A stretch of 60,011 nucleotides of DNA from a virus (Duplodnaviria > Caudoviricetes), in the IMG/VR virus record IMGVR_UViG_3300027806_000047, positions 1 to 60,011 of that record; one strand, given 5' to 3'. Positions within the stretch are counted from its first letter, which is position 1. The number at the start of each line of letters is the position of its first letter. Positions 8,052-46,045 of this stretch are shown here, piece after piece. Below the pieces are notes generated by a model. That model searched no databases. It was not told where the DNA came from and saw only the letters and a list, made by a program, of their open reading frames with translations. The position numbers were made by a program, and so were the translations under genes.

Positions 8052-8365
8052 TCGACACCCGACAACTGCCCGTCGAATACCCCCACATCCGCGAGGACCT
8101 GGTGGAGATGGCCGGCGACGAGAACCTGATCTTCCTCGACGGCTTCGACCACTGCATCACCGGACTGTGCTCCATCCACGGTGAAGTGCCCCGCGTGGCC
8201 TACAGCACCGAGGCAATCATCGAGACCCTCCAGAAGCGCGACGGCATGCCCTACGAAGAGGCGACCGAGTTTTTTGACTTCAACATCGGCGGCCTGCACT
8301 GCGGCCCCTACACACCTGCCCTGGTGCTCTCCGCGCCGGGGGTTGAGATTACCGTAAAACGATGA
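8048..8365 (+). CDS. conserved phage hypothetical protein
   Basis: DGFDHCITG...VAYS...DGMPYEEATEFFDFNIGG..GPYTP pattern familiar from aquatic phages. Confidence 0.7.
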   Translation: MIDTRQLPVEYPHIREDLVEMAGDENLIFLDGFDHCITGLCSIHGEVPRVAYSTEAIIETLQKRDGMPYEEATEFFDFNIGGLHCGPYTPALVLSAPGVEITVKR

Positions 8366-9069
8366 GAGTTCGACCCATCAGCATCACCCAAGCCCTGCCC
8401 GGAGCGATCCCAGGTCACCCGTCCGACGTTTCGCCGGAGGCCCTGATCGTCTACAAGGCCCGCGTCTCGAGCCCCGAGAACCAGGTCAAGCACCTCAACG
8501 GCCCGCGGCTCCTGGCATTCTGCATCCGACACAAGCACTGGAGTCCGTTCGAGATGGTGGACCTGACGATGGAGATCGAGACGTCCAGGGCGATTGCCGC
8601 TCAGATCCTCCGGCACCGCTCGTTCAGCTTCCAGGAGTTCAGCCAGCGGTACAGCGCCGTGGCCAAGCTGGGAGACTTGGTGGAGCCCGTGGAGATGCGG
8701 GAGACGCACGTCGACGGGAACCGGCAGGGAAGCGGGGGTAACATCGGCAGCCGGCCCATCCCCCACGCATCCTATTCAGTCGACGAGATCGCCGACTCGG
8801 CCGTCCGACACGCCGAGCAGGCGTACCGGGAGCTGCTGTCGGCTGGCGTGGCCCCGGAGTGCGCCCGGATGGTGCTGCCTTTGGCGACGAGGACCCGACT
8901 CTACATGAAGGGGTCGGTCCGCTCCTGGATCCACTACTTCCAAGTCCGGTGCGACGGCCACGCCCAGAAAGAGCACCGCCAAGTCGCCGAGGCAATCCGG
9001 ATGGAGTTCAACCTGCTGTTCCCGACGATAGCCCTGGCGCTCGCCCCGGCAGAACCCACCCAGCCTTGA
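8362..9069 (+). CDS. thyX: flavin-dependent thymidylate synthase
   Basis: HWSPFE, RHRSFSFQEFSQRY signature, ARMVLP, AQKEH. Confidence 0.95.
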   Translation: MRVRPISITQALPGAIPGHPSDVSPEALIVYKARVSSPENQVKHLNGPRLLAFCIRHKHWSPFEMVDLTMEIETSRAIAAQILRHRSFSFQEFSQRYSAVAKLGDLVEPVEMRETHVDGNRQGSGGNIGSRPIPHASYSVDEIADSAVRHAEQAYRELLSAGVAPECARMVLPLATRTRLYMKGSVRSWIHYFQVRCDGHAQKEHRQVAEAIRMEFNLLFPTIALALAPAEPTQP

Positions 9070-10783: not shown

Positions 10784-11536
10784 ATGGTCACGCCGCACTT
10801 GCACTTCATCTGGGGATTCAAGGAGGGCGACACGTTCGGCCTGATCGAGCGCATCGCAATTCAGTCGGCCTGCTGCCACCACCCGACGTGGCCCGCAACG
10901 CTCTGGACGCGGCGCATCCCAACGGGGAGTCACTGGGAGAAGTTGAAGGCCGCGGTGCCCTGGCTGAGGACTATGCCGGCGCCGCGGATCGACACGTTCA
11001 ACGGGCGGCCGGTTCCGAAGTACCAGCACAAGGCCGACGCCCTGCGATACAGCCTGCTGTACAGCTTGGGCGGGGTCTACATGGACCTGGACACGATCAC
11101 CCTGGCACCGATCCCGAAGGAGTGGCTGGAGAAGCCCTACACGATCGGCCTGGAGTACCATGCCGACGGGTCTCCGATCGGCTTGTGCAATGCAGTCTAC
11201 ATGTGCGCCCCGTTCTCGCGGTTCGGCTGGCGTGTCCTGAGCGAGTTTCAGGCGTTCGACCCAGCCGTCCACGCTTACGCGGAGTTCGGGGTCTACAGAC
11301 CGCTAAAGTGGGCCCTGGAAATGGCGCACGACGTCCACATCGTGAAGGGCCCCTTGCTGGGGCCCATGCACTGGGACATCGCGGCCTACTGGGAACGGGA
11401 GGAGCCGCTACGTGACGTCGTGATCGCCCACCTGTGGAGGACCAACCACAGCGACCCGGTGCTGCGGAAGCTGACCGAGGAAGACCTGCGGCACGGGCGG
11501 TTTGCCTACGCTCAGGCCGCCAAGCGGTACGTCTAG
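10784..11536 (+). CDS. GT32-like (DxD sugar-binding) glycosyltransferase
   Basis: HFIW...HKADALRYSLLYSLGGVYMDLD...LCNAV. Confidence 0.9.
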   Translation: MVTPHLHFIWGFKEGDTFGLIERIAIQSACCHHPTWPATLWTRRIPTGSHWEKLKAAVPWLRTMPAPRIDTFNGRPVPKYQHKADALRYSLLYSLGGVYMDLDTITLAPIPKEWLEKPYTIGLEYHADGSPIGLCNAVYMCAPFSRFGWRVLSEFQAFDPAVHAYAEFGVYRPLKWALEMAHDVHIVKGPLLGPMHWDIAAYWEREEPLRDVVIAHLWRTNHSDPVLRKLTEEDLRHGRFAYAQAAKRYV

Positions 11537-20845: not shown

Positions 20846-21165
20846 GCACCACACCACGATCAGACCTCCGGCGAGAGATCGCCGACCTCGTCCGTCTCGG
20901 CGGACCCACCGTCGAGGCCTACCTCGACTACGCCAAGCGGTACGCTGGCCTGGCGTTCGACCACGCCCAGTCCTGTGCGTCCACGACATGGCCCCGCGAG
21001 CACGTCTGGGGAGTCCGTCTTCTGGCCGTCTTGAAGCTCCAGGAGGAGACGCCGGAGCGGCTCGAACAGAAGATCCAGGCGATTCACCTGAAGGCGAAGG
21101 TGAGCCACGTCATCCCTTGTCGCCACAGCATGTCCCTCTACGTTTTCGGGCCGGACGACCAATGA
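20842..21165 (+). CDS. hypothetical protein
   Basis: ATGA overlaps on both sides. Confidence 0.65.
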   Translation: MSTTPRSDLRREIADLVRLGGPTVEAYLDYAKRYAGLAFDHAQSCASTTWPREHVWGVRLLAVLKLQEETPERLEQKIQAIHLKAKVSHVIPCRHSMSLYVFGPDDQ

Positions 21166-21674
21166 AGATCATCGGACTCAGCGGGCGGAAACGCTCCGGC
21201 AAGGACACCGTCTACTCGATCATCCAGGAAGAAGCCGCGCACCGGCAACCCCACCGCGTGGCGTTCGCCGACCCGTTGAAGGAAGAGGTCTCGGCCCTCC
21301 TGAACGTGCCCGTCGCGGACCTGGAGGCCGACAAGGCACGGTTCCGCGGGATCCTGCAATGGTGGGGCACCGAGTGGCGTCGAGGGCAGAACCCCAACTA
21401 CTGGATCGACCTCACCCGGGCACGGATCCGCGCCTTGCGGGGGTCCACGGGCATGGTCGTCGTCACCGACGTGCGGTTTCCCAACGAGGCCGAGCTGATT
21501 GAGAGCATGGGGGGCACCGTCGTCAGGATCTCCCGACCCGAGGCCGACACTGTGGTAGACCCCCACTCGTCGGAGGTCGTGATGGACAGCTACCCGTTCC
21601 GGCACGTCATCCGGAACACGGGAACGCTCGACGAGCTTCGTCAGGCTGTGCGCTCGTTTTTGCTTCTCGCCTGA
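21162..21674 (+). CDS. deoxynucleoside monophosphate kinase
   Basis: IIGLSGRKRSGKDT, AFADPLK, RGILQWWGTE, VVTDVRFPNE. Confidence 0.9.
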   Translation: MKIIGLSGRKRSGKDTVYSIIQEEAAHRQPHRVAFADPLKEEVSALLNVPVADLEADKARFRGILQWWGTEWRRGQNPNYWIDLTRARIRALRGSTGMVVVTDVRFPNEAELIESMGGTVVRISRPEADTVVDPHSSEVVMDSYPFRHVIRNTGTLDELRQAVRSFLLLA

Positions 21675-25173: not shown

Positions 25174-25374
25174 TTACTCCGGCTTCTGGTCGCTCTCAGA
25201 AGGAGCCGCGAACCCAGCGGCTTTCGCTCGCCGGTACTTCAGCCGCTCTTCCGGGGTAAGCGGGGCACCCGACCTCATCTTCAGCTCCGCGTAAGCGGCG
25301 AACGACTGCAGAGCGTCCTCCTCTGGAGTCGTGTCCGGAGGGTCTTTGGAGAAGTCGGCGGGAAAGGCGCTCAT
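25174..25374 (-). CDS. hypothetical protein
   Basis: ATGA-coupled to the giant protein stop. Confidence 0.6.
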   Translation of the reverse strand: MSAFPADFSKDPPDTTPEEDALQSFAAYAELKMRSGAPLTPEERLKYRRAKAAGFAAPSESDQKPE

Positions 25375-28300
25375 GGCTTCAGTGTAAATCGCTTGAGGGT
25401 GCTGCCGTCCAGGCCCTCAGTGTAGTACTGCTTGGCCCGTACCTGCGCCAGCACCGCGTCCGGCGTGATGTCAGAATGTTGGAGCAGATCGTGAGTCAAA
25501 TCCAGACTGGAGTGTCCGACCGCCTCGTTCTTGATCGCGTTCCACCCCAACGTCGGCGATCCGCCGACGTTGGGGTGGTTGCCCAGCAGGTTTTTGATGT
25601 CCTGGGACCGATCGATGGCCGCCTGGAGTACCGTTTCCATCCCCTCGTAAAACGCGAGGGAGAAAGTAGGATCGGCGTTTTCGATCGGCCCATAACCGCC
25701 GTAGATGCTTGCGACATCCTCGGGGGTGCCGGTGCTGGTGTACTTGAAGTAGTCCTGCGGGGCCTTGCCGAACTGCCCCATGAAGAACTCGACGAACTTC
25801 CAGCGGTCCATGATCAGACCAGGGATGCCGAAGGTGAGGCCAACGAACCGCTGGACCTTGTTTTTGATGCCGACCGATCCGCGGTTGAGGGACCAGAAGC
25901 GGCGCCCCATCTCGCGGGAGGAGGGCGTGGCGTAAACGTCGGAGACTTTGTCCCAAGCCCCGTTCCACCGGGACAGCATCAAATAGAACGAATTGGCGTT
26001 CGAGGTCGCCGAATTGCCGAGCAGGTTGCCCGGCTGCGCGGTCGCCTTGTAGGCCCGAGAAACGATGGCGTTCCAGGCATCCTGAGTGAAGTCGGGGCCG
26101 AGGGTTCCGTCGATGGACTTCTGGATGTGCTCCAAGACCTCCGGTTGAGAAACTAGCCGAAGCCACGACGCCTCCTGGTGGATGGGGGCAAGGCGGCGAG
26201 ACAGCACCCCCCACAGGTGGTGCATCGCAGCCACCATGGGCGGAGGAGCCACGAACTGCGATGCGCCTTGGACGCGGGCCTGTATCGCCTGCCGCATCGC
26301 CACGGTGCTGTCCAAGCCGGACATGGCTGCCGCAAGGGTGCCGGCAGCGGTCTTCGGGCCGTGGTAAGCTCCAGTAACCAGGGCGACGTACTGTTGCGGG
26401 TTGTTGAGGAGCAACTCAGCCCCCGGCGGCGGCATCAGCACGTTGCCGGAGACGCCCGCCGTACGCATGAACTCGACGTATCCTGCGGGGTCGACAAACC
26501 GCGTCGGGTCGTTCCGCACCCGGTCGACAGCGGCGTCCAACCGCCCAAAAAACACCTTCTGCAGCTCGGTCTGGTTTTTGGCTCCAGCCAAAGAGTTCTT
26601 TGGCAGACTCTTGGCCAGCGTCGGCATCGTGTAGGAGACCAGCGGGACCAAGTCTTGCTTGCTTTGCGAAAGCTCCTTGAGCTTGGCGCGAAGGGCTTTC
26701 TTCTCTTCCTTCGTAGCAGCCGCGGCCATCGCAGTATTCACCTCCGCCATCTCGTCGGCGATGGCGGACATGCCCATTTTTTCCGCTTTCACGGTCGCCC
26801 CAGGGACCCGGACCAAGTACTTCGGGTCCGGGGTGACCGCAGGGCTGAAACGAATGTCTTCCTTTGCTTGGTCGAACCGCTGCGACAGCGGGATGACGTT
26901 GCCGGCGTCGTCGCGGGTGATGGGGTCGGCGGATTTGATCTGGGTTGGGTCGAAGGCAACGTATTCTGTACCTCCTTTGAATCCAGGCGCATCCTGAGTC
27001 CTAATAATAGCCCCATCAAACCCATCTTGCTTTGCCTTCATTCTGAACAGTCTCGCCTTCGCTACGGTATCCAATGCGGACTGCTCTCTTTCTGAGAGTT
27101 CAATCGGGTTTTCAATGCGCAGGAAATACGGAGCAGTGTTTCCGTATTGAGACGCGGTTTCTTCTGAATCAGAGAAGAATGAACCAAGTGCTGACGATTC
27201 GTGCCTTGATGTCTTCTCTCCGGCGCGAACGTTGAACACCGTCGGCTTTGCTCCACCATGCCACACCGGCCCAACCGTGTACCCCGCCTTTACCGCCGCC
27301 TCATCGACCATCCGCTGCGCGGCAGCCGTGTCGCCCTTCTGCACCGCCGAGAGGTAGGCGGCGTCCTGCTCCGGAGTGATCTTCGGGCTGAAGAGGAGGT
27401 CCTTCTCGGTCGAGAGGCGCTCGACGGTGGCGACGCGGTTCGCGTTGTCAGTGTAGGTCTCGACCGCGAGGCCCGCCTGCCTGAGAGCGTCCACGACCTC
27501 AGGCGAGGTGGACTCCGGCACCACGGCGGCCCGGAACTCGTTCAGGGTCACGGCGCGTTGCGGCTTCGCCTCGAAGTACTCCGTCGGGGCGGTGGCCAGC
27601 TTCGTCGCGAAGTCCCGGACCGCCTTCACCAGGCTGTCTGGGACACGCTTGAACCCTGCCGCCGATAGGAGGGCTCCGGTCGTGGCAGGGCGCTTGGCGG
27701 CCTTGCCGACGGCCTCGGACAGGCGGTCAAGGCGCTCGAACGCGCCCGCCTCCGGGTTGAAGTACTGGAGCCTGTCCGACAGCTCCGAGAACTCCCGCGA
27801 CTGGGCGTCCTTGAACGCCCGCATGCTTTCGCTGTCGGTTAGCGAGCCCCTCTCAGAGCGCACGGCTTCCAAGCTGGGAAGCGCCTTGGCCGAGTCGGAG
27901 CGGGCCTTACCGAGCGAGTAGGTCATGCCCCTCTCGCGAGCCCGGGGGTCGCCCGACATCTCCTCGACCAGGGTGTCGAGAGCGTAGGGCTTCTTGGTGC
28001 GGCCGGAGAGCAGCTTCTGGTCGGTCTCGAAGGTGTCGGCAACCAGACCGTCCACCCACTGCTCGAACTCGGCCTTGAGAGGTGTGAGCTGCTCGCGGAT
28101 CCAGTCCTGGATGCCGTACCTGTCGATTTCCTGCTCGTTCTTCGCGACGGTGGCCAGATCGTCCACGATGTCGCTGATGTAGCGAAACGGGAACGGAGTG
28201 CCTCGGGCACCGTAGGACTTTTCCATGAGCCCGTTCAGGCGCTGCTTTTGCTCCTCGGTGATGCCTTCCAGATCGCTCATCCGCCCCGCGACCGCCAGGT

Positions 28301-31300
28301 CCCGGACGGCGTCTCCGGCGGCAATGCCTTCTGGCGTTTGGAGGAAGTCGTAGAGGTCGCTGGAATGCTGCGACAGCACTGCCAGGCTCGGGTCTGCGAG
28401 CTGCTCCCGACTCAGGGAGCGGTTCCGAAGGTTGGGGTCCTTCATCAGGCGCGGCACCTCGATACCCCTCTGGGTGAGGAAGGCGGCCTGCACGTCCGGG
28501 GCGCCGGCCAGCTTGCGACGTGTCTCCAGCACGTTGTTCTCCCCCTTCTCGACCACCATGTCGTAGGCGCGTTCGCCTGGGGCGAGGTCGCTCCATGTCT
28601 GGAAACCCTTCGGGAGGAGTTCCTTCATCCGCTTCGAGAGCCTGTCCCGTGCTCCGCGCTTCACGGCCTGGAAAGGGCGCGGCTGGCGCGGAGAGTACAC
28701 GTCCGCGTTGTAGACCTTGTTGCGGGGATCCGCCTGGGGGTCGATGGCCGACTTGTCCGCGATGAGCGTGATGTCGCCGAAGCCCGTGAAGGCCGTGTCC
28801 TTCTTGGTGATGCCGAGGCTGGGCACTGGGATGCCGCCGAGCTTCAAGGCAGCGCGGATGCCTTCCTCGGTGGTGTTGTGCAGGGCCACCAGGTTCCGAT
28901 CGACCTTCGGGCTGAAGCGGATGTCTTCCTTTGCTTGGTCGAACCGCTGCGACAGCGGGATGACGTTTCCGGCGTCGTCGCGGGTGATGGGATCGGCCAA
29001 CTTGATTCGATCGGGGTCGAGCACGGCATAGGAATCGATCCCCTCCCGCTCCTGGAGCTTGAAGACTCTGAACCCTTGGCTGATCAGCTCCGCTCCAGCG
29101 TCGGCCGCCGGGTAGTCAAAGATCTCCCAAGTGAGATCTTTCTTGGGGTCGAACCGCGGCGACTTTCGGGCCGGATCCAGCTCCTGCATTTCACGGAACA
29201 GGTCCTCGTCTGCCGCCCATCCTCCAGCCTCATTGAACGCCCGGACCAGCTCCTTGTACTGCGGAGATTCTGGATCGGACAAATCGGCCACCTTGTCATC
29301 AGCTCTGAGGTAGAACGATCTCAGGTTGGACCCATAGCCCCGAGCGTACTCCTTGTCGGCGGTGAAGTACGAAGCCCCAGCCCTGCCGGGCTCAAACTCG
29401 GTGAACTCGTCGCCGGTCCCGTGCCATAGAGGGCCCAGCGTGTACCCCGCCGCCTTCGCCGCCTCATCCACCATCCGCTGCGCTGCCTGGGTGTCGCCCT
29501 TCTGCACCGCGTCGAGGTAGGCGGCGTCCTGCTCCGGAGTGATCTGCGGGCTGAACCGCTCCTGTCCCTTGGTGCTGATGGACTGGGCCATCTCAGGGGT
29601 GATGGAGACCTTCCAGAATGGGGTCTTCGCTTCTCCAGAGGACTTCACCTTGTAGCCCGCGCCCGCGTCGGGAGGTGCGACGTCCAACTCCGCCTTCTCG
29701 ACCTTCCCTCCCCACTGCTTGACGTACTTCTGGACCTCGTTGGGGAGGATCTTGTCGTAGAAGCCGCGCATGCCCTCTCCGCCAACCTTGAGATCAACCC
29801 CGCCCAAGGAACGGCGGGTGCCGAAAGCCGGTTGCGCGAGAAGTTTCTCCGCAGCCTCCTTGCCGATGTACTCTGGCAACTGCTCGGGTGATACGCCCGT
29901 TTGCTCAATGACCGTCTTGCCGTTGAGGTCGTAGGCTTTCAGGTTCGTGCCGGAATAGTGGATCTCGGAGATCCGCTTGCTCAGGTCAAACCGAGTCGCC
30001 TGGGTGTCGCCGGTAGTCCAGCCGACCCACCCCTGCCCGTTGGCCACCGCTTCCCGAAGAGCCCGTTTGAACATCTGAAGGCCCCAGTCCTTACGGAACG
30101 GCGCGTCAGGGACTCCGGTCTGGCCCCCGGTCTTTGAATTGATGTCGGACGACAGCGTGGTGATCTCGTCCTGCTGTGCTGGCGTCCGGTCTTTGGCGGG
30201 AATCTTGAGCAGCTCATCGAGGCGAGACTGCATCTGCTCCTTTGTTTGAGCGTACCCTTTCTGACGGCCCTCTTGATGGCGGTCGCTCTGGACCTCTTCG
30301 ATGAACAGGCCCGGCCGCCCGTCAGCATCGACACGGTCCTTGAGTCGCATGTGCGCCACGTAGTTAGAGGTGTCGAAATGGCGAGACTTGTAGCTCCCGC
30401 GCTCCCGATCGAACACGGCCCCCCTGTTGAGAGATTCCAAGGCACCTGCCACGGCCTCTTGTTCGGTGTTGAACAGGCCGTCAAGGCGGCTGTGGTTGAA
30501 CCCGACCTTGAAGCCGGACTTGTCGGACACCCAATACCCCTCCTTCGTCCCCGACTTCTGGAGCTTTGGCTGATACCCGGGAGGCAGTTCAGTCAGTTTC
30601 TTCTCCGGCATCGCCAGCACGACTTCGCGATAGTCCTCACCACCCGGCAAAGTGTAGTCGGCGTATTGAGAGTAGCCCGTATCGTCACGTTCCGAGCTGA
30701 AAACCTCTTGGCGCAACGGAACGCGGTTCTTCTGGAGTGCCTGCATCAGGGCCTCCTTGGGGACCTTGCCACCGTTCTGCGCGGCGAGCTGGTCGATGAC
30801 CTCGTCGGCCTTCGTCCACTTCATCTCCTCGGCCTTGACGCCGCGGTTCCGGAGCACTGCCTTCAACTGGGCGGCCGGCATCGAAGCACCCTTCATCTCG
30901 TCGCCGATGACCTGCTCCAGCTTCGAGTAGAAGCCCTTCTCCGGGCTCTGGGCGACGCCGGGGCTGAACAGGAGCTTCTCCCCAGCGTTGCGAACGACCT
31001 GGTCCTCGGAAGCCTCTCGGGGCGGGGTCTCGAACAGCCTCGGGGGCCGCATCATCGCATCGCGAAGTCCGCCGAATCCGGGGATGAACGCATCGTCCAA
31101 GATGCCGTCCCTGACCAGTTGCTCGAACATCACCGCGTCCGACTCGAACGACCCATACGCCACTGCCGATGAGGCTCCGTTGGCGATGGCGAACTTGCGG
31201 ACTTCCTCGGCGAACTTCTTGGAGTCGATGTTCGGGGAGATCTCGCCAACCGCTTTGATGTACTTGCGAGGATCCAGAAAGAGGATCATCCGAGACGGGT

Positions 31301-34300
31301 TGTTGGGGTTGGCAAACGCTGCCCCCACGCGAGCCAGCGCCGACGGCCCAACGATTTCAGCGTCCCAGATTGGCTTGTTGAGCCACTTGTCGGGGCCCGG
31401 CGCGGGCACCTGCACTCGATCCACGCTGCCGAAGCTCGTAATGATGTGGTGGTCGGTGTGGTTGGTAACGACGTGGCCCAAGAAGCGCAGCGTCGCGAGC
31501 GGGGAGCTTCGGAATCCAACCCACGACAGAATCGACTTCGTTGCCCGGACGTCCGGCTCGGAGGGGGTAGAGATGCCGGAAGGATGGTTGTGGGTCCAGA
31601 ATAGGCTGTCCGCACCGGACGCGACCGCCATCTTCGAGAGTTGGTCGATGTCTAAACCTTTCGTCAGCATGTGGACCGCGTCCGGCTGACGGACCGTCGT
31701 GTTCGCGACGGCCACCACTTTGCCTTCCTTCACGAACACCCACCGCATCGCCTCGAAGGCCGGGTTCCGGAACAGCGCGGCGACGGCGTGGCGGTCCTGG
31801 GCGGTCGCGGCCGACATCCCGATCGGGTTTACGGGACCGCGCTTCAGTAGGCGCTTGATGCGGCTGGCAGTGATCGAGAACGTGGTCGGCGCGTCCTTCG
31901 GTTGGCGAGGTGCTCGCGGGGCGGGCGAGGGCTTCTCAGGGGCCAGCGCCTCCTCCGTTCCGAGCTGATCCACGGCCTTGTTGAAGTTCAGCTCGAGCTG
32001 CTCGGGCGGGACCACCTGCGGGCTCAGGTTCCGGACCTGCTTGCTGTAGTCGGGCTTCTGGTAACCCGTCACGTCGCTCGGCTCGACGGTCTGGAGACGG
32101 TCGGCGCGGTAGGAGCGCACGATGCCCTGACGGTCCTTGCCCTTGGCCTGGGGCCGCAGCGGGTTCAGCGCCTCGAAGGTGCGATTGCCGCCCACCAGGA
32201 AGACGTTGATGACGTTCCGCTTCATCTCGCCGATGCCGTCCGACCCCGGTCGGCCCTCAGCGTGGTTCTTCAGGTAGGTCTGGACGTCGGCCTTGAAGGT
32301 GCTCAGGTCGCCGTTCCACAGCTCAAGACTTAGGGGACCCTTTCGGCCTGCCCAGTCGGAGGCCTTCCGGTCCAGAGCCGTCAGGCTGTAGTTCTGCACC
32401 AGGAGGTTGCCCTGCTTGTCGACCTTGAACGCGAAGGGGATGAAGTCCTTGTACTGGGCTTCCATCGCGCCCAGGGACTCGCGGACGCTCGCGGCCCAGC
32501 CGTCGCCCGTGCCGATCTGCTGATACCAGCCGGCCATCGTCTCGTTGTTCGCGATCGCCTGCTCGACGCGGCGGAGCATGTTCTTGGTGCCCTCGCCGAA
32601 GCTGCGGGCCGTCGCGTAGAACTGCTCGCCCAGTCGGGTGCCGGTCTTCTCGGTCAGCCCCGACGGGCCTTGGCGGACGCCGACGTTGCTCGCCTGCGGG
32701 TTGGCGTTTCCGGAGGGCGGGACGTCCGGGAACAGCGTCAGCACTTCCTTTCGGCGGTTCCGGACGCGGGCCCGGACGACCGGGACGGGCGTCTCGCGGG
32801 TCTGGCCGTTCACGACATCGACAAAGTCGTTGCCCTGAGTGCCGTCGGCTCGGGTCTCGGTCGGGAGGGCAGGGTGGTTGCCGGCCTGCTCGGGCCGGAG
32901 CCTCACGCCGGGCTCCTTCTGCATGTCCACGGCCGGCCGGAACTCCGAGGCCGCCTGGAACTGCTGTCGCACCAAGTCGAGGGTGGCCGGATCCTTGAGC
33001 ACTTTCCGCACGTCAGCATCCCGGAAGAACGACTGCGTGTCGGTGCGCCCTAAGACGACGGGAAGCGCCTCGTTCAGGTTCACTCCGCGGAGACCGTTGG
33101 CCATCGCCTCGGAGAACAGTTCGCCGACGATGAAGGCGTCGTCCTGCGGGATCGTGCGCCCGAGGGCCTGCTGGTAGTCCTGGCGAGCGCGGGCCATGCC
33201 GTCGGGACCGAGAGCCTGCCGGAAGTGCTGGATGATTGCCGGATTCGAGGCGGCGACCGACGCCATGAGGGCATGGCCGATCTCATGGAGCTGCCGGCCG
33301 GCGGCATCTACAGCCTCCAGGTTGACGGCGACGCGCCCTGTGGACTCGTCAAAGTAGGCCGCCGCGTTCGGATCCTTCGACGACTTTGCGAACTGGGCCG
33401 CATCCATCAGGTCGACCTTCAGGTCCTGACGTCCGGCCAGCATTCCCTGGAACGTCTGCTCCAGGATGACCGACGAGTGCATCAGTTCATCCGGGGTGGA
33501 CGCAACGACCAAGGGGTCCGCACCCGCTTGGATCGACTCGGAGGCCTTCCGCATCGAGTCGTAGGCGAAAGCCAGAGCCTTCCGCTCACGCGACATCCGG
33601 CGGAGCGCCGGGAGGGTGCCCGCGCCGCCGAGCAGGCCGCCGACGCCCGCTTCGCCGCCGATCTCCTCGCCCGACTTGCTGGTGTCTAGGCCGGTGAGCA
33701 GTGCGTCGGTGGCCGCGCCCTCGACGACGCCCTTGCCGAGGTCGCTGCCGACCCGCAGGCCCGTCTCGACCATCTGGCCGGCCTTCAGCTTGCCGACGAC
33801 GTTGGCCGTCACACCCCGGACAAGCCACTGGGGCGCGTTCGGGTCCTTGGCGATCTGCCGCCAGACGGGGATCGAGGAGTCCCAGTCCGCGTCCGCGATG
33901 GTGCGGAGCGCCGTGCCGGCCCGGGAGGCATTCTCCGACCACCGAGCAGCCTTTCGGATCGCTTCGGGCACCTGGGAACCGGCGAGGGCCCCCAAGGGAC
34001 CACTCGACGCGCCTGCGACGGCGCTGGCGGCACTCAGGGTGCCTTCGTATTTGTCCGCAAGCTCGCCAACCTTGCCGGCGGCCCTCTCCACCAGCTTTCC
34101 GCCGGTCTCGGCAGCCCGGCCGGCGGCCCCAATGCCCCGCTGGAATGCCCCCGGGCCCGCCTGAGCAGCTTCTGCGGCTTTCTTCGCAAACAGCGACTGG
34201 GCCCGCTTCGACTCCGAAGGCGGGGTCAATTGGATCGAGGGCGTCTGGAGGGGCGGGGCAGTCTCGTCGCTGCGCTGAACGGCCTCTTCCCAGGCCTTGC

Positions 34301-35201
34301 GGTTGTTCTCGGCGATGCGGGCGGCGCTGCCTTTGGCCTGTTGGGCCTTCGCAATCGTCGCTGCCTTGCCGCCCATCTCCAGAATGGGGGTGCCCAGCTT
34401 CTTGGTGATCCCGGGGGCTACCTTTTCGCCAATGCGAGTGCCGAGCCTGACCGCTCGGGATTGGAGAAGACCCGGGTCGGCCACCATCGACGCCAGCTCG
34501 GTGGTCTGGGCAAGGTCCTTCGGTGGGGTAACCGCCTTACCGAGCTTTTCGGCAATGGTGGTGTCTCCGCCTGTGGCCAAGTCAGCAACAGACGTGACCA
34601 CCTCCCCGAGCAGAGAACGATCTCCCTTCTGTAAGGCCTCGCGATCCGCCGCCTGCGCCGCGTCGCGGGCTTGAGCTTCGCGAATGACCGCAGCAGCCTG
34701 CCGGGGAAACACCTGAAGCATGGACAGCGTCCGGTCCATGCTGGGGCCCGCAAACTGCCAAGCGTTTTCGACCGCCCGGTCCACCGTGGGCAGGAACCCC
34801 TCTTCCGCGACTGCTCGACGCAAGACTCGGTAAGGGTCGAGTACCTGAGACTCGAACACATCCTTACCAAGTTGCCCAAGGTCGGCCGCACCGCGGAGAA
34901 CCGCTTCACCAGCCACCCTCGACGCATCCGTACCGGGAAGGTCGGGTTTGAGGTCCGGCGGAGCTGTCATCCGTCCGGCCAGCTCGCCAGCCGCGCCCGA
35001 GACTTGGCCCGCGAAGTCCGAAATGCCCTGCACGGCCCCCCGGGCATACGCCATCGGGTTTAGGCGGGATTTTACGGCCTCAGTACGGGCCTCGACGGCC
35101 TGCTGCGTCTCCAGCTCCTCCGGACTGACCACAGGAGCGTCGGCGATGAAGGGCTTGGAGCCGGCGGTCTTGATAGCAGGGTAGTTGGCGATGAAGGGCA
35201 T
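25371..35201 (-). CDS. giant polyvalent internal virion/ejection protein (3276 aa)
   Basis: Last gene of the ejection cluster. HEIGH zincin, HNHPSG..PS..D JAB/RadC, EEVQSD domain, two WHG ART-like domains, YFEAKP domain, HhH-like C-terminus. Confidence 0.85.
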   Translation of the reverse strand: MPFIANYPAIKTAGSKPFIADAPVVSPEELETQQAVEARTEAVKSRLNPMAYARGAVQGISDFAGQVSGAAGELAGRMTAPPDLKPDLPGTDASRVAGEAVLRGAADLGQLGKDVFESQVLDPYRVLRRAVAEEGFLPTVDRAVENAWQFAGPSMDRTLSMLQVFPRQAAAVIREAQARDAAQAADREALQKGDRSLLGEVVTSVADLATGGDTTIAEKLGKAVTPPKDLAQTTELASMVADPGLLQSRAVRLGTRIGEKVAPGITKKLGTPILEMGGKAATIAKAQQAKGSAARIAENNRKAWEEAVQRSDETAPPLQTPSIQLTPPSESKRAQSLFAKKAAEAAQAGPGAFQRGIGAAGRAAETGGKLVERAAGKVGELADKYEGTLSAASAVAGASSGPLGALAGSQVPEAIRKAARWSENASRAGTALRTIADADWDSSIPVWRQIAKDPNAPQWLVRGVTANVVGKLKAGQMVETGLRVGSDLGKGVVEGAATDALLTGLDTSKSGEEIGGEAGVGGLLGGAGTLPALRRMSRERKALAFAYDSMRKASESIQAGADPLVVASTPDELMHSSVILEQTFQGMLAGRQDLKVDLMDAAQFAKSSKDPNAAAYFDESTGRVAVNLEAVDAAGRQLHEIGHALMASVAASNPAIIQHFRQALGPDGMARARQDYQQALGRTIPQDDAFIVGELFSEAMANGLRGVNLNEALPVVLGRTDTQSFFRDADVRKVLKDPATLDLVRQQFQAASEFRPAVDMQKEPGVRLRPEQAGNHPALPTETRADGTQGNDFVDVVNGQTRETPVPVVRARVRNRRKEVLTLFPDVPPSGNANPQASNVGVRQGPSGLTEKTGTRLGEQFYATARSFGEGTKNMLRRVEQAIANNETMAGWYQQIGTGDGWAASVRESLGAMEAQYKDFIPFAFKVDKQGNLLVQNYSLTALDRKASDWAGRKGPLSLELWNGDLSTFKADVQTYLKNHAEGRPGSDGIGEMKRNVINVFLVGGNRTFEALNPLRPQAKGKDRQGIVRSYRADRLQTVEPSDVTGYQKPDYSKQVRNLSPQVVPPEQLELNFNKAVDQLGTEEALAPEKPSPAPRAPRQPKDAPTTFSITASRIKRLLKRGPVNPIGMSAATAQDRHAVAALFRNPAFEAMRWVFVKEGKVVAVANTTVRQPDAVHMLTKGLDIDQLSKMAVASGADSLFWTHNHPSGISTPSEPDVRATKSILSWVGFRSSPLATLRFLGHVVTNHTDHHIITSFGSVDRVQVPAPGPDKWLNKPIWDAEIVGPSALARVGAAFANPNNPSRMILFLDPRKYIKAVGEISPNIDSKKFAEEVRKFAIANGASSAVAYGSFESDAVMFEQLVRDGILDDAFIPGFGGLRDAMMRPPRLFETPPREASEDQVVRNAGEKLLFSPGVAQSPEKGFYSKLEQVIGDEMKGASMPAAQLKAVLRNRGVKAEEMKWTKADEVIDQLAAQNGGKVPKEALMQALQKNRVPLRQEVFSSERDDTGYSQYADYTLPGGEDYREVVLAMPEKKLTELPPGYQPKLQKSGTKEGYWVSDKSGFKVGFNHSRLDGLFNTEQEAVAGALESLNRGAVFDRERGSYKSRHFDTSNYVAHMRLKDRVDADGRPGLFIEEVQSDRHQEGRQKGYAQTKEQMQSRLDELLKIPAKDRTPAQQDEITTLSSDINSKTGGQTGVPDAPFRKDWGLQMFKRALREAVANGQGWVGWTTGDTQATRFDLSKRISEIHYSGTNLKAYDLNGKTVIEQTGVSPEQLPEYIGKEAAEKLLAQPAFGTRRSLGGVDLKVGGEGMRGFYDKILPNEVQKYVKQWGGKVEKAELDVAPPDAGAGYKVKSSGEAKTPFWKVSITPEMAQSISTKGQERFSPQITPEQDAAYLDAVQKGDTQAAQRMVDEAAKAAGYTLGPLWHGTGDEFTEFEPGRAGASYFTADKEYARGYGSNLRSFYLRADDKVADLSDPESPQYKELVRAFNEAGGWAADEDLFREMQELDPARKSPRFDPKKDLTWEIFDYPAADAGAELISQGFRVFKLQEREGIDSYAVLDPDRIKLADPITRDDAGNVIPLSQRFDQAKEDIRFSPKVDRNLVALHNTTEEGIRAALKLGGIPVPSLGITKKDTAFTGFGDITLIADKSAIDPQADPRNKVYNADVYSPRQPRPFQAVKRGARDRLSKRMKELLPKGFQTWSDLAPGERAYDMVVEKGENNVLETRRKLAGAPDVQAAFLTQRGIEVPRLMKDPNLRNRSLSREQLADPSLAVLSQHSSDLYDFLQTPEGIAAGDAVRDLAVAGRMSDLEGITEEQKQRLNGLMEKSYGARGTPFPFRYISDIVDDLATVAKNEQEIDRYGIQDWIREQLTPLKAEFEQWVDGLVADTFETDQKLLSGRTKKPYALDTLVEEMSGDPRARERGMTYSLGKARSDSAKALPSLEAVRSERGSLTDSESMRAFKDAQSREFSELSDRLQYFNPEAGAFERLDRLSEAVGKAAKRPATTGALLSAAGFKRVPDSLVKAVRDFATKLATAPTEYFEAKPQRAVTLNEFRAAVVPESTSPEVVDALRQAGLAVETYTDNANRVATVERLSTEKDLLFSPKITPEQDAAYLSAVQKGDTAAAQRMVDEAAVKAGYTVGPVWHGGAKPTVFNVRAGEKTSRHESSALGSFFSDSEETASQYGNTAPYFLRIENPIELSEREQSALDTVAKARLFRMKAKQDGFDGAIIRTQDAPGFKGGTEYVAFDPTQIKSADPITRDDAGNVIPLSQRFDQAKEDIRFSPAVTPDPKYLVRVPGATVKAEKMGMSAIADEMAEVNTAMAAAATKEEKKALRAKLKELSQSKQDLVPLVSYTMPTLAKSLPKNSLAGAKNQTELQKVFFGRLDAAVDRVRNDPTRFVDPAGYVEFMRTAGVSGNVLMPPPGAELLLNNPQQYVALVTGAYHGPKTAAGTLAAAMSGLDSTVAMRQAIQARVQGASQFVAPPPMVAAMHHLWGVLSRRLAPIHQEASWLRLVSQPEVLEHIQKSIDGTLGPDFTQDAWNAIVSRAYKATAQPGNLLGNSATSNANSFYLMLSRWNGAWDKVSDVYATPSSREMGRRFWSLNRGSVGIKNKVQRFVGLTFGIPGLIMDRWKFVEFFMGQFGKAPQDYFKYTSTGTPEDVASIYGGYGPIENADPTFSLAFYEGMETVLQAAIDRSQDIKNLLGNHPNVGGSPTLGWNAIKNEAVGHSSLDLTHDLLQHSDITPDAVLAQVRAKQYYTEGLDGSTLKRFTLKP
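26842..28997 (-). repeat. dispersed direct repeat pair (26842-26930 and 28909-28997)
   Basis: Both copies encode ADPITRDDAGNVIPLSQRFDQAKEDIRFSP with near-identical DNA. Confidence 0.9.
27278..29555 (-). repeat. dispersed direct repeat pair (27278-27392 and 29441-29555)
   Basis: Both copies encode FSPxITPEQDAAYLxAVQKGDTxAAQRMVDEAAxxAGYT. Confidence 0.9.
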
Positions 35202-40625: not shown

Positions 40626-41381
40626 TCACCCGGCAAGGATTGCCCTGTTGAACAGGTCCGGATCCATTCGTTGGAGCCGGCGCCGTACCCGTCCGACGCA
40701 TTCCTCGCTGTGCTTACAGTGCATGAGGTGGCAGTAGCCCAAAGCCTCCGCCTCGAGCGGGTTGGTGTGGTTGAAGAGCGTGGTGACCCTCTTGCCACAG
40801 TCGCGGGCGTGGCGGGCGAGCCACGCCTGCTCGTAGACAGTCATCGCGACAGGGTCGAAAGCCTCCACCTCGCGGATCGCCTCCAAGCCCTTGGTCGCGT
40901 AGTCGCACAGGAACTCCACATCGTGACCTCCGATGATCCCGACGTTGTAGCAGTCCCAGGCGTGGTCCGGAGTCGTCAGCCGAGCCCGGTGCTGCGACGG
41001 AGTGACGTCCAGGCTCCAGTCGTAGAGGGGCCGGGGCTCGAAACTCTGCGCGAACACCGGGGCCGCAACGACGTGCTCCGGAAGAGCCTTGAAGAGAAAG
41101 ACGTCCTGGTCGATGTGGATGAAAGGCTCCTGCTGGATCGAGTATGCCTTCATCTTGCCCGCCGCCCACGCCTTTGGCGTCACGTCGAAGCCCTCCAGGT
41201 CGGTACGTACCGACGTGAAGGGAAGCTGCATCCGCTCGAAGAGCCGCGCCCCCTGATCGTCGGTGACCATCTCGATCTGATCGTAATGCTGCCGGGCCAG
41301 AAGCACCGACACGGCCAAGATGACCCGATGGTCGACCGACATGAACCTCGGGGCCGACCAGTGGCTGTAGACGACTCTCAT
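40626..41381 (-). CDS. DUF6734-like putative glycosyltransferase
   Basis: VYSHWS...VTDDQG...WAAGKMKAYSIQQEPFIHIDQDVFL...YNVGIIGG...EQ. TGATG-coupled. Confidence 0.7.
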   Translation of the reverse strand: MRVVYSHWSAPRFMSVDHRVILAVSVLLARQHYDQIEMVTDDQGARLFERMQLPFTSVRTDLEGFDVTPKAWAAGKMKAYSIQQEPFIHIDQDVFLFKALPEHVVAAPVFAQSFEPRPLYDWSLDVTPSQHRARLTTPDHAWDCYNVGIIGGHDVEFLCDYATKGLEAIREVEAFDPVAMTVYEQAWLARHARDCGKRVTTLFNHTNPLEAEALGYCHLMHCKHSEECVGRVRRRLQRMDPDLFNRAILAG

Positions 41382-43576
41382 CAGATCAGGGATGTCCCGA
41401 CCCCGGAGCCCGACGAGCACAGCCCGATGCAGACGTTGCTGCGGAGCGCGACGAAGGTGGGCAGCAGGTTGTCCGCACCGACCACCGGGTAGAGAACGCT
41501 CGGGCAGTTGGGCCAGGAGTAGATGATCGACCGCATCACCTCGGGGTCGAACGGCAGCCCTGGGAAATGGCTGGCCAAAAGCTGTTCCAGGTCGAGCACC
41601 ACGACAACCACGGTCGTGCCGGCGAGCTTGGCCGCCGTGAAGGACTCGCTGGTCTTGTTCGCGATGCAGGTAAGTTGACTCGGCGCTGTCGGGCACTGTG
41701 AAAAATCACGGACGTACCCAAACTTCTGGTATGCGAGACCGTCCGTAAAGACGACCATCAACCTCGGCTTACCAGGAATTGAGCCCGCTTCCAACGCCTC
41801 TTGAGCTATATCGACTCCATCAGCTATGTGCGTCAAACCGAAGGGCTGTAGAGCTTCGACAATAGTGCGCGGATACGTCAGGTCACTCGTCAGCGGGTGG
41901 TGCAACAACGCTCCGCTCGAGAACGACACCGTCAGCACCCGATCGGTGCTCTTGCAGGTGTCCAGAAACAGGTTCACGGCCTGCTTGAGGCGAGTCATCC
42001 GCGGACCGTTGGGCGGGTTGGTGTATGCCATTGATCCCGAGGTATCGAGCACCAGGGCGATCTCATGGCCAAGGTCGTTGCAGTCCACCAGCACGGTCAC
42101 CAGGGCTGATGCCGTCATGCCCTGATACGTCGCTTGGATGGTTGCTGTACCCGGGCTGTGGCCCCGCACGACGCCCTGTTGCGTAGTCGTGGCGACTGCC
42201 GTGTCCAGGCTCGTCCAAGTGCTGGAGTTGGTGACATCCAGCTTGGCGCCGTCGAGGAACGTCGCAAGCGCCTGGAATGGGAAGTCGACTCCTTTCGGCA
42301 ACGTCACGCTGGCCGGACGTACTTCTAAGGACATCGCCTGCCGTTGCACCGTGGTGTAGCAGACCGACAACGGCCTCTCAGTAGTCCGCGTGACGGTGTC
42401 GATCTCGACCCCGGCCTTGGTGAAAGCCTTCGCCACCAGGACCGTCGACGAGACGTCGAACCGGACGGCCCCGTAGTCGGAATTGTATCGAACCTGGGAC
42501 CCCGTGACCGGCGTCGGGACGAAGTTCCTCAAGTCCTTGCCGCCCCAGCCCGTGATGATGTGCAGCACTCCGTCGGTGCGGTGGATCCGCTCGTACAGGT
42601 GCGAGTGCCCGGTGATCAGCACGTCGGCTCCCCACTCGCCGAGAGGCCAGTTCATAACCGAGTATCCCGGGTAGTAGTCCACCCCGCTGGTCTGGGGCGG
42701 GTGGTGCCAGACGACGACGCGCCACGGGCAGTCCGAAGCCGCGAGCTGGGCTTGGAGCCACAGGGCCTGCGGGCCTGTCGAGGACAGGTCGGCGTTACCG
42801 ACGCCCGGATCCGCGCCCGTGCCCAACACCGCACTGCCCCCCGGTCCGGCGGCGCTCGGCCCGTAGCCGTAGGAGTCGACGAAGAAGAACTGCACCGGGC
42901 CCCTCTTGACGGTGTAGTACCGCTCGTTGCCTGGCAGGGCAAAGAAACTCAGGAACTCGGCCAGCGGGCCGTCGGTGTAGTCGTGGTTCCCGAGGGCCGG
43001 GAAGAACCTGTTGTCGGCGGGGCCTTTGCCATACGGGCCGTCGTAGCCGCCGAGTGCCCACCAGTAGTGCTTGGCCACTTGGGTGTCGTAGCGGCTGTCC
43101 AACTCGGTGGTGCCTCCGTCCGGGTACACCAGGTCGCCAGCGTGGACGACGATCTCCGGATCCCACCCTTGGACCAGCTTGGCTACCCCGGCCGTGTTCG
43201 GCCCGACGGTACCGCTGTCGGCCACGGCGGCGAAGCGGACCGAACAGTCCGCCGGGCAGACCAAGGCGCGGGCTCGCTTCTTCATCGTCCAGAGCTGGCC
43301 GTCGGTGCCTACGATGGGCAGGCGCTCGACCTCCACGTCGGACGACGTGAGGTTGGGCTGGTGGATCAGGTTGGCCTCGCCGTCGAGCTGGTTCTTGGGC
43401 AGGTGGACCCGCTCGTAGCCCGGAGCCGCCTGCAGCTCGCCCTTCTCGGCGCGGACGTTCTCGGCGACCGTCAGGAACTGCGATTTTCCATCGTCCTCGA
43501 GGTCGGTAGGAAGTCGAGTGATCAGGCCCTTGCTCGGGCCGTCGACACGGAGTTGGGTGCCGTTGGATCTACGCAT
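41381..43576 (-). CDS. fusion: nozzle-N-like segment, metallophosphoesterase, Ig-like (Big_2), vWA
   Basis: DSG, GDLVY, GNHD, HHP, GHSH. DVTNSSTWTSLDTAVA..G...G.ATIQATY. LDTSGSM...T...VFTDG. Confidence 0.85.
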   Translation of the reverse strand: MRRSNGTQLRVDGPSKGLITRLPTDLEDDGKSQFLTVAENVRAEKGELQAAPGYERVHLPKNQLDGEANLIHQPNLTSSDVEVERLPIVGTDGQLWTMKKRARALVCPADCSVRFAAVADSGTVGPNTAGVAKLVQGWDPEIVVHAGDLVYPDGGTTELDSRYDTQVAKHYWWALGGYDGPYGKGPADNRFFPALGNHDYTDGPLAEFLSFFALPGNERYYTVKRGPVQFFFVDSYGYGPSAAGPGGSAVLGTGADPGVGNADLSSTGPQALWLQAQLAASDCPWRVVVWHHPPQTSGVDYYPGYSVMNWPLGEWGADVLITGHSHLYERIHRTDGVLHIITGWGGKDLRNFVPTPVTGSQVRYNSDYGAVRFDVSSTVLVAKAFTKAGVEIDTVTRTTERPLSVCYTTVQRQAMSLEVRPASVTLPKGVDFPFQALATFLDGAKLDVTNSSTWTSLDTAVATTTQQGVVRGHSPGTATIQATYQGMTASALVTVLVDCNDLGHEIALVLDTSGSMAYTNPPNGPRMTRLKQAVNLFLDTCKSTDRVLTVSFSSGALLHHPLTSDLTYPRTIVEALQPFGLTHIADGVDIAQEALEAGSIPGKPRLMVVFTDGLAYQKFGYVRDFSQCPTAPSQLTCIANKTSESFTAAKLAGTTVVVVVLDLEQLLASHFPGLPFDPEVMRSIIYSWPNCPSVLYPVVGADNLLPTFVALRSNVCIGLCSSGSGVGTSLI

Positions 43577-44387
43577 ACCATTCCAGGAGTACCATGCCGG
43601 GAGTGCCCAGCGCATTGACGGCCCCGCCAAAGCCAAACGGTCGGTACGGGGGTCGCTTGAAGTTGTAGATGTTCCGCTTGTCGAGGTACACGCCAGAGCC
43701 TCCAAGGATGTTGTTGGTGTACCCTTCGGAAGTCACGTAGCGCACGTAGTCCATCGTGCTGAAGGCGCTCGGTGCGTCCGGCTGTCCGACGAGCACCCGA
43801 TACTGCTCCCCTGGCACGACGGAAAAGGAGATCCAGGAAACTCGGGCGTTTTCCCCTGCGGCCGAGGCCGATCCCTTTAGCCCTCCGCCGACGCATACCA
43901 CCTGGATGCGCGTGACGTTCTTTGGCGCGAAGAATCGGTACTCCCGGACCAGCGGGAGGATGAAGGAATCAGCCTTCAGCAGCTTGCCGACGGGCCACTG
44001 TGAATTGTTCGCCGCGGGGTCTCGGATGAGCCCCGTCTCCGATTCTTGAATCGACCCGTCGCTGGCGTAGACCGCCCGGAAGATCCGAGGGGCGTAGATC
44101 TTGGCGTCCTTGCCGCCCTTCACGACGAACCCCCTCGCGTCCACGGTGACCTCGCGGTAGAAGTCCGGCGCACTGTCCGGCTTGTCCGGGTGCTCCACCA
44201 GCGCCGCCTGGGGGACGACGCTGTCCTTGAAGTCCCCCGACTCGAGGTCCATCACCGCGCCGAGGAAACTCTTCAGCCGGGAGCGGATGAAGCGGATCTC
44301 GGTTGCCAAGTTAGGCTTCGAGGGGTGCCTGACGAAGTCCGCCTCCGTCGGCTTCGATGCGTTGAAATCTGCGCCGAGGTTCGCCAT
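43569..44387 (-). CDS. short tail fibre-like protein (Gly-rich domain)
   Basis: YREVTVDARGFV, F.AP..VTRIQVVCVGGG, G.VLLEW. Confidence 0.65.
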   Translation of the reverse strand: MANLGADFNASKPTEADFVRHPSKPNLATEIRFIRSRLKSFLGAVMDLESGDFKDSVVPQAALVEHPDKPDSAPDFYREVTVDARGFVVKGGKDAKIYAPRIFRAVYASDGSIQESETGLIRDPAANNSQWPVGKLLKADSFILPLVREYRFFAPKNVTRIQVVCVGGGLKGSASAAGENARVSWISFSVVPGEQYRVLVGQPDAPSAFSTMDYVRYVTSEGYTNNILGGSGVYLDKRNIYNFKRPPYRPFGFGGAVNALGTPGMVLLEWYA

Positions 44388-45323: not shown

Positions 45324-45998
45324 TCAGCCTCCCATGCGGAGCGCACGTCCGCGGTTCTGTCGGCGGTTGTCCGTGAGCACGGCCTCCGACATCTGCGCGG
45401 CGGCCAGGTTCTCAAAGGAGGCCGCCAGCGGGTCGTTGAGGGCCGCAAAAGCGGTCGCCTTCACCTTGCTCTCCACCAGGTCCGGATAGTCCTGGAGGAG
45501 GAAGTTGGTGTCGCTGTCGTTCACCAGGTCCGCCGAGAACCTGAAGTGCGACACCTTGAAGTTGATGTCCTCGTCGGCGATGCCCGCAATGTTGATGGCC
45601 CACCCCGACGACGTGTTTTCGAGGAAGACGGGGAGTCCCGACAGGCGGCCCCGGACGTTGGGCGGGATCGTGGGCACGTTCGCCGCGGCCCGATAGTTGA
45701 TCAGGCTCTCCCGACTGGTGACCTCGCAGGGAAGCTCCGAGTGGGTCGCCGGCAGCGACGGATCCACGACGGTCACGGGCGACAGCTCCGGAGTCAGCTC
45801 CTTGAACTGGCTCCCCAGCAGCGCCGAGGACTGCCCGGCGACGATCGTGATCGGCGACCGCGCCTTCATGGCCGAGAAGTTAGAGGACATCTGGATGCGG
45901 CGGATCGCCCGGTTGATCCAGATGGGATACCAGACGGTCTCCTTGTCGGCCCGGTTCACGTCCTGGGCCAGCATCAGCTTGAGGTCACCGAAGGTCAT
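45324..45998 (-). CDS. head-tail adaptor (tail tubular protein A-like)
   Basis: MTFGDLK...WINRAIRRI...L.NDSDTNFLLQDYPDL. Follows the capsid genes. Confidence 0.75.
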   Translation of the reverse strand: MTFGDLKLMLAQDVNRADKETVWYPIWINRAIRRIQMSSNFSAMKARSPITIVAGQSSALLGSQFKELTPELSPVTVVDPSLPATHSELPCEVTSRESLINYRAAANVPTIPPNVRGRLSGLPVFLENTSSGWAINIAGIADEDINFKVSHFRFSADLVNDSDTNFLLQDYPDLVESKVKATAFAALNDPLAASFENLAAAQMSEAVLTDNRRQNRGRALRMGG

Positions 45999-46045
45999 GG
46001 CGTCGTCCTCCCATGCCGGCAATGTACAGAGGAGGGCTTGACTCT

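Follow-up and report, generated by a model that had tools for sequence, protein, structure and literature searches.

A repeated φ-Ser-Pro joint borders exchangeable modules in a giant phage polyvalent protein and is a candidate cleavage site for the protein's own zincin-like domain

Results

The giant open reading frame and its modules

We analyzed a 60,011-bp virus record (IMGVR_UViG_3300027806_000047; Duplodnaviria, Caudoviricetes), the whole of which is called the window here and is ~91% complete, and concentrated on a giant open reading frame (ORF) in it and on a short motif that recurs at the joints between the modules of the encoded protein. The ORF closes a minus-strand structural block in which the portal, capsid, adaptor and tail genes precede it (Table 1), and from this gene context the protein would be packaged in the virion and injected. 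By its marker genes the phage is an uncultured SU10-like podophage, with an SU10-type portal (PF23899, 9e-18), major capsid protein (PF17236, 2e-28) and adaptor (PF24175, 1e-9).

Pfam profiles matched a RadC-like JAB domain (amino acids (aa) 1184-1226), two ART-PolyVal domains (within aa 1884-2099 and 2605-2788) and PBECR5 (aa 2101-2253), and since RadC, two copies of ART-PolyVal and PBECR5 stand in one polypeptide, the giant ORF is by domain content a polyvalent protein in the sense of Iyer et al. 2017. We refer to its first 1,058 residues as the anchor, which consists of a helical N-terminus, an HExxH...E domain, a WYL-like barrel and a tail of the form DYxKxxxN-φ-S-P (φ being hydrophobic or aromatic). 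Behind it come six cargo modules in the order RadC-JAB, M3, ART, PBECR5 (a predicted RNase), ART and C-terminal domain. M3 is the most widely shared module, present in most of 60 homologs, and it had no match in Pfam, in the Atlas or among PDB sequences (only E > 0.2 in the last); a partial match to a PHROG labelled endolysin covers aa 1603-1762 only. The 489-aa C-terminal domain belongs to no Pfam or PHROG family and gave only E > 0.2 in the PDB sequence search. It is the last module in every homolog that carries it (P0002, P0003, P0009, P0013 and P0016, with 53-61% identity in the latter three), and this fixed place suggests a position-dependent role. The N-terminus (aa 1-554) was named neither by Pfam nor by PHROGs.

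A sequence-only reading of the same DNA had described a gene at 25371..33440 that encodes a bead string of domains. The bead string is borne out by the modules above, and the end at 25371 is correct, while the true ORF reaches 35201 and is 1.76 kb longer, that reading having covered the last 2,690 codons. The six motifs that it listed, five of them with TTCAGCCC, all lie at the positions it gave and in frame in this single ORF, and the HEIGH sequence that it placed between AAAYFDE upstream and ELFSE downstream is present (Table 1).

A short motif recurs at the joints

[FL]SP tripeptides occur six times in the 3,276 residues, all in frame and all on the minus strand, and form joints 1 to 6 (Table 1); because the two ART-PolyVal copies, to which the joints at aa 1883/2604 and 2096/2785 belong, are almost the same at their ends, the number of independent sites is about four. 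FSP was found five times against 0.43 expected from residue shuffles, and one YSP (aa 2169) lies inside the PBECR5 domain. The cargo joints repeat the end of the anchor tail as [R/L]-F-S-P-x-[V/I]. In frame, five joints are encoded by TTCAGCCC and the sixth by CTGAGCCC, and AGC, with a share of 23% among the gene's Ser codons, encodes the serine at all six joints.

Among the other 36 phage ORFs scanned, 10 hold one or two scattered copies of the motif each, and the scan found no copy in the capsid, portal or scaffold-candidate proteins. This distribution bears on the idea that the joints are cut by another protease, of phage maturation or of the host, with the HExxH domain having a different task. 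Large-phage prohead proteases trim packaged proteins at short motifs. Prohead-protease cleavage has been described (PMC5694885, PMC10052503), but no prohead protease is recognisable in the genome, the capsid, portal and scaffold-candidate proteins lack the motif, and the motif changes flavour with the tail of the anchor itself (see below). We therefore set aside a prohead-protease site, and cutting by any other protease appears very improbable.

The joints coincide with the borders of exchangeable modules

The giant protein was compared with the 60 homologs by BLAST, and the internal ends of high-scoring segment pairs (HSPs) were taken as breakpoints. Out of 253 internal HSP ends, 112 fell within 10 aa of the six sites, where ~3.9% were expected; ~10 HSP ends cluster near aa 1500-1510 inside M3, and some breakpoints are thus motif-free. 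Family-wide (203 proteins), 12,051 of 66,242 HSP ends lay near φSP against 2,389 expected, a 5.05-fold ratio that, like the other ratios given here, overstates the significance because the counts include related, non-independent sequences. Five control motifs gave family-wide ratios of 1.1-1.9. When the anchor end was left out, 3,152 of 15,471 ends were near φSP (809 expected, ratio 3.9; controls 0.9-1.7).

The close relatives place the same borders to the residue. First, the flanks of P0002 and P0003 match this protein at 99% identity, and exactly between NLSP and QVVP both have an additional ART module of 262 aa that ends with DIRFSP. Second, P0003 is without PBECR5 and the second ART-PolyVal copy, and the gap runs exactly from FSP to FSP. 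Third, the module order is permuted among the homologs, with residues 1-1063 always N-terminal. The homology comparison shows that exchangeable modules throughout the family are bordered by the motif. It agrees with the sequence-only reading in placing FSP at module borders, and the gain or loss of modules exactly at the motif, which that reading proposed to look for, is seen in the relatives. Meanwhile, three ART variants (copies 1 and 2, and P0002 aa 2177-2448) share near-identical N-terminal (~40 aa) and C-terminal (~30 aa) arms around unrelated cores; in the alignments, these core differences look like cassette exchange inside the module, separate from the joints.

The motif is conserved as a peptide

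The insertion and deletion at 99%-identical flanks, the permuted order and the shared ART arms would all suit a motif that is mainly a recombination joint, i.e. a repeat copied with each added cassette and having no protein role of its own. The same holds for the longer joints repeated in some proteins (TSELPKREE, NQSERI, SGEARP) and for the junction serines, which always have an AGY codon also in the relatives and thus fit a common origin of the joints and a serine never lost in the lineage. However, only 8 nucleotides (nt) are shared between the joints in the window, and the relatives keep F/L-S-P but change all three third positions (TTG AGC CCC, TTT AGT CCA, TTA AGC CCG and TTT AGC CCC in L001; TTC AGT CCG in L002; CTG AGT CCT in L003). 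Moreover, the tail is equally conserved in anchor-only genes that have no cassettes. Since the peptide is kept while the third positions vary, selection would act on the peptide, not on the DNA, and the codon comparison shows the motif to be a short linear element under protein-level selection. We accordingly rejected a DNA repeat as the primary feature, relatives using different codons, and consider a mainly recombinational joint improbable. The proposal in the sequence-only reading that the linker serves as a microhomology for shuffling is for the same reasons weak as a primary role and plausible as a by-product. The DNA-level comparisons rest on few loci, since a related-loci search with the single anchor protein returned none and one with the anchor alignment returned one viral, two metagenome and one genome locus.

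The motif also tends to change in step within proteins. After the M3 tail GQxx-F, homologs show SP, SG, RP, MP, QS, QP, LP, TS and others, and the modules within one protein tend to agree in flavour: P0009 has LSGEV, FSGEARP twice and YSGEAKP, P0018 has QSER six times, P0030 TSEL four times, P0113 QFSP six times and P0187 FSPGG, and P0155 has FMPAG four times with the anchor tail included. For 42 SP-type anchors (one per cluster), the residue after φSP was the anchor's own at 64 of 189 downstream sites, where permutation gives 24.4 and 0 of 5,000 permutations reached 64; pairs of sites in the same protein agreed in 108 of 437 cases against 49.0 by permutation. These comparisons show a link of the joints to the anchor tail, with a motif that varies between lineages and matches only partly within one protein.

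The anchor family and its tail

The anchor (aa 540-1062) recruited 356 clusters at E ≤ 0.001 in a full HMMER scan (clusters at 50% identity). No tblastn match at E ≤ 0.01 was obtained with the anchor in 50,697 cultured-phage records, a megablast search of cultured phages with the gene found nothing, tblastn of aa 588-3276 against them gave only 8 weak module matches, and no Pfam or PHROG model matched the anchor. For most homologs the match stops near residue 1000-1200, which for many is also the end of the protein; the anchor-only proteins end 4-20 aa after the first motif (NFSPER, NFSPDLPQ, NLLPDAPIQ, NLMPAPQ and NYAPTR, each directly before the stop). Since many proteins end at the anchor tail, joint 1 is the native C-terminal tail, and the modules are C-terminal additions.

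In the tail, the position before φ is N in 101 of 105 cluster representatives, which have L (54), F (22), Y (8), R (7) or M (5) at φ, S (67) or M (14) at +1, and P in 97 at +2. The downstream joints favour aromatics (F before SP 135 times against 19.8 expected, Y 53 against 16.4), with L before SP at expectation, and the residue before the aromatic is enriched in Q (4.3-fold), N (2.6-fold) and R (2.2-fold).

A 4-kb contig in a Verrucomicrobium sp. metagenome-assembled genome encodes the anchor with 99% identity over aa 1-1004 (L005:1048-4017); this is a clue to the host, or else phage DNA that was placed in a bacterial bin.

The anchor contains a zincin-like domain and a WYL-like barrel

HExxH or HExxxH is present in 136 of 140 full-length anchors (115 with HExxH, 20 with HExxxH, one with both HExxE and HExxxH, three with HExxE and one with none). 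Alignments of 92 and of 56 sequences show no variation at H639, E640 and E694, and H643 is at least 90% conserved. The HExxxH anchors (e.g. HEALGH; 20-21 of 140) include P0013-P0015, P0064-P0079 and others, and dipeptidyl-peptidase III has the same HExxxH spacing.

A first model of aa 1-1062 from 13 sequences (predicted local distance difference test (pLDDT) 51.5) was uninformative in Foldseek and was replaced by a model of aa 555-1075 from 56 sequences, with a pLDDT of 89.8 and a predicted template modelling score of 0.85. The domain contains strands at aa 595-599, 615-618 and 623-627 and helices at aa 634-652 and 688-703, so that the model has the gluzincin layout, with an HExxH helix and a downstream Glu helix after a three-stranded sheet; the zincin-like domain of PMC5512222 is described there with the same layout. 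VIA-align over 48,161 chains placed model residues 1-205 on the lethal factor catalytic domain (Z 8.6, root-mean-square deviation 4.2, 156 aa), the Pro-Pro endopeptidases (PPEPs) PPEP-3 (Z 7.7) and PPEP-2 (7.5), PprI (6.1), M13 peptidases (~6), the ArdC C-terminal domain (6.0), dipeptidyl-peptidase III (weak, 5.0) and CapP (4.3). The weak top rows of Foldseek were mostly zincins (collagenases G, H and T, lethal factor and PPEP-3), and the nine BFVD entries matched at E ≤ 0.001 are large and belong to uncultured phages, several of them being annotated as polyvalent. The conserved residues and the fold model support the HExxH segment, which Pfam did not recognise and which the sequence-only reading had taken for a peptidase, as a conserved zincin-like domain and putative peptidase.

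Model residues 256-504 aligned with WYL domains (CapW Z 8.7, BrxR 8.4, PafBC 7.9, DriD 6.5), and the WYL matches, which are middling, span Z 8.7-6.3 over 81-96 residues with the conserved W892-Y893 in the aligned range. The tail N1058-P1061 follows the last confident helix, and pLDDT is ~70 at aa 1055-1064 and then 56 and 46. A predicted complex of anchor aa 555-1057 with a 40-aa joint-2 peptide scored 0.00, which counts neither way on binding.

Neighbouring genes

The phage also encodes a tail-region protein (41381-43705) with calcineurin-like phosphoesterase, Big_2 and VWA domains, adjoined by a DUF6734 ORF (40626-41696). The listed overlap of the two is ~300 nt, so one of the starts was probably miscalled. 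The phage further encodes two glycosyltransferases, ThyX and a dNMP kinase (54101-55702, 10784-11536, 8362-9069 and 20988-21674), one of the glycosyltransferases lying between TerL and a large tail-fibre-like gene, and these genes may point to modified DNA or a glycosylated virion.

Table 1. Positions in the window of the giant ORF, its domains and joints, and the structural genes upstream of it
Feature	Position	Strand	Remarks
Giant ORF, 3,276 aa (P0001)	25371..35201	minus	polyvalent virion-module protein by domain content and gene context; 16% of record
N-terminal region, aa 1-554	33540..35201	minus	mostly helical, Ala/Gly-rich, no family match; conserved in close relatives; low-confidence model
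Zincin-like metallopeptidase domain (predicted), aa 555-760	32922..33539	minus	three strands, HExxH helix 634-652, Glu helix 688-703
HEIGH (H639, E640, H643), aa 639-643	33273..33287	minus	AAAYFDE before, ELFSE after
E694 in GELFSE	33120..33122	minus	candidate third zinc ligand; invariant in alignments
Best-conserved part of the anchor, aa 810-1058	32028..32774	minus	WYL/Sm-like beta-barrel, W892-Y893 conserved; ends DYSKQVRN
Joint 1, N-LSP-QV, aa 1059	32019..32027	minus	native C-terminal tail of the anchor
Module with RadC-like JAB domain (HNHPSG), aa 1062-1411	30969..32018	minus	Pfam
Joint 2, EKLL-FSP-GV, aa 1412	30960..30968	minus	in-frame motif
Module M3, aa 1415-1882	29556..30959	minus	ends ITPEM...GQER-F
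Joint 3, GQER-FSP-QI, aa 1883	29547..29555	minus	in-frame motif
ART-PolyVal copy 1, aa 1886-2095	28917..29546	minus	Pfam
Joint 4, EDIR-FSP-KV, aa 2096	28908..28916	minus	PBECR5 profile match begins 3 residues on
PBECR5 predicted RNase with ~350-aa extension (phrog_22978), aa 2099-2603	27393..28907	minus	Pfam, PHROGs
Joint 5, KDLL-FSP-KI, aa 2604	27384..27392	minus	in-frame motif
ART-PolyVal copy 2, aa 2607-2784	26850..27383	minus	N- and C-terminal arms as in copy 1, core differs
Joint 6, EDIR-FSP-AV, aa 2785	26841..26849	minus	in-frame motif
Unnamed C-terminal domain, aa 2788-3276	25374..26840	minus	homology
Adaptor	45324-46022	minus	structural block
Major capsid protein	46593-47903	minus	structural block
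SU10-type portal	49536-51620	minus	structural block
TerL	52413-54029	minus	structural block

Discussion

The best reading of the joints, which we hold tentatively and at a little less than even confidence, is that the protein is cleaved at them by its own zincin. The zincin-like domain of the anchor would recognise and cut the motif at each joint and thereby release the modules, after packaging or delivery, as individual effectors, much as the sequence-only reading had proposed for an injected protein. The residue that zincins accept right after the cut is usually hydrophobic (the S1' pocket), and for this reason the cut would probably fall just before the aromatic residue, x|F-S-P. Cleavage would explain why one short peptide recurs after unrelated folds, why the joints copy the tail that follows a protease-bearing anchor, and why whole proteins shift flavour together. 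The repeated joint and the conserved ART arms would also let modules be gained, lost and swapped in frame as a likely side effect, and whatever its role, the joint probably aids such in-frame exchange. Release of polyvalent-protein domains by an embedded zincin has already been proposed (Iyer et al. 2017, PMC5512222), in a paper of which the main text, supplements aside, names no joint motif or cleavage site, and at the level of abstracts and listings the literature on polyvalent proteins and ejection-protein processing describes no joint motif. The joint motif seems new.

A different chemistry, self-cleavage by a Ser nucleophile, was considered and rejected. Autoproteolytic sites of the Nup98/PIDD-like kind are of the H-F-S type, with an invariant Ser nucleophile after the aromatic. 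At the joints the aromatic follows R, L, N or Q rather than His, and other lineages replace the Ser with M, L, A, R or Q.

Several observations weigh against cleavage by the zincin-like domain, beginning with the fact that cutting is purely what we infer in this analysis and with the non-independence of the HSP-end counts given above. On the enzyme side, no peptidase family was matched in Pfam or PHROGs, also when the segment was searched by itself with a cutoff of E ≤ 5, Foldseek gave no PDB match at E ≤ 0.001 (best E 0.024), and VIA Z values of 8-9 are middling, in a range common for unmatched models. On the substrate side, the exposure of joints 2-6 is suggested only by homology borders and Pfam envelopes, and at joint 4 the PBECR5 match begins 3 residues past FSP and leaves little linker. 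The link between joint flavour and anchor is also looser than the SP-type anchors suggest: downstream of 44 non-SP anchors, φSP was found 67 times (21.4 expected) and the anchor's own dipeptide 45 times (20.8 expected), and a module-by-module permutation gave 9 of 17 against 2.1 in 11 proteins, with some of the regular-expression hits false. Furthermore, peptidase domains of this kind are present in the N4 virion RNA polymerase, ArdC and TraC1, which are nevertheless packaged or transferred uncleaved (PMC5512222). Finally, anchor-only homologs keep both HExxH and the N-φ-x-P tail with no cargo to release, and both therefore have some role besides freeing cargo.

The last two points are what one would expect if the motif were an uncleaved tail or docking element that the cargo copies from the anchor, the zincin acting on host targets or on the envelope. 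The groove or barrel of the anchor, the portal or core, or a host factor could be the docking partner, and the beads would then be handled alike for capsid packing or tail threading. The intermediate model confidence of the tail, which is not clearly disordered, fits this idea, and other podophage ejection proteins carry envelope-degrading hydrolases, including an M23 metallopeptidase (PMC12002296). However, no docking partner is known, an enzyme site would account at least equally well for a uniform motif of four to six residues across unrelated folds, and other phage proteins show only scattered copies of the motif. We regard docking as unlikely, and cleavage by the embedded zincin remains the reading that we prefer.

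If that reading is extended, these may be true phage polyproteins with a readable grammar, in which the zincin cuts every [Q/N/R]-[F/Y/L]-S-P, the flavour co-evolves with the anchor tail, and the effector set can be predicted from the sequence; we consider this possible but doubtful. It is pure speculation that the WYL-like barrel gates the protease by sensing DNA, and equally speculative that a cut before F, Y or L yields a bacterial N-end-rule start and hence short-lived early effectors.

Polyvalent proteins are considered the first weapons that a phage or plasmid brings into the cell. Whether and where they are cut has been a proposal since 2017, and the motif makes this proposal testable with one construct. 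If cutting is true, module borders and released effectors would become readable from metagenomic sequence for hundreds of uncultured phages, and the joint would also give a natural rule for effector gain and loss. The anchor family, with its 356 clusters absent from cultured phages, Pfam and PHROGs, and the widespread M3 without a known relative add to this interest.

Comparison with known systems

The giant protein is closest to the polyvalent proteins of PMC5512222, which are likewise very large and combine ART-PolyVal, PBECR5, RadC and unnamed domains with a zincin-like HExxH...E domain; that paper draws an analogy to viral polyproteins. In contrast to those proteins, the anchor described here, which combines the zincin-like domain and WYL-like barrel with an N-φ-x-P tail, has no Pfam or PHROG match. 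Polymorphic toxins such as CdiA and Rhs also have a conserved N-terminal carrier, swappable C-terminal cargo and a short border peptide, for which VENN and PxxxxDPxGL are the familiar motifs. Their C-terminal toxin diversity arises by recombination with cassettes (PMC3482391). Here, however, each of several consecutive modules is closed by the motif, and the role of carrier falls to a phage virion-module protein that itself contains a zincin-like domain.

Among peptidases, the M34-type gluzincins (lethal factor and the PPEPs) are the best structural matches of aa 555-759 and share HExxH...E. Six residues of the substrate, P3 to P3', are recognised in the PPEP active site (PMC12828418), a span similar to the conserved joint. 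In contrast, sequence identity to lethal factor and the PPEPs is 12-16%, and the HExxxH spacing of some anchors sets them apart. Lastly, the anchor pairs a putative zincin fold, weakly matched by PprI (PprI/IrrE) and CapP, with a barrel that matches the WYL domains of CapW, BrxR, PafBC and DriD. In the PDB matches of these bacterial DNA-damage and defence sensors, the WYL domain sits in transcription factors and not in the protease chain, and small barrels are a common fold. On the predicted model, the pairing nonetheless recalls bacterial DNA-sensing protease switches, here in a phage virion-module protein.

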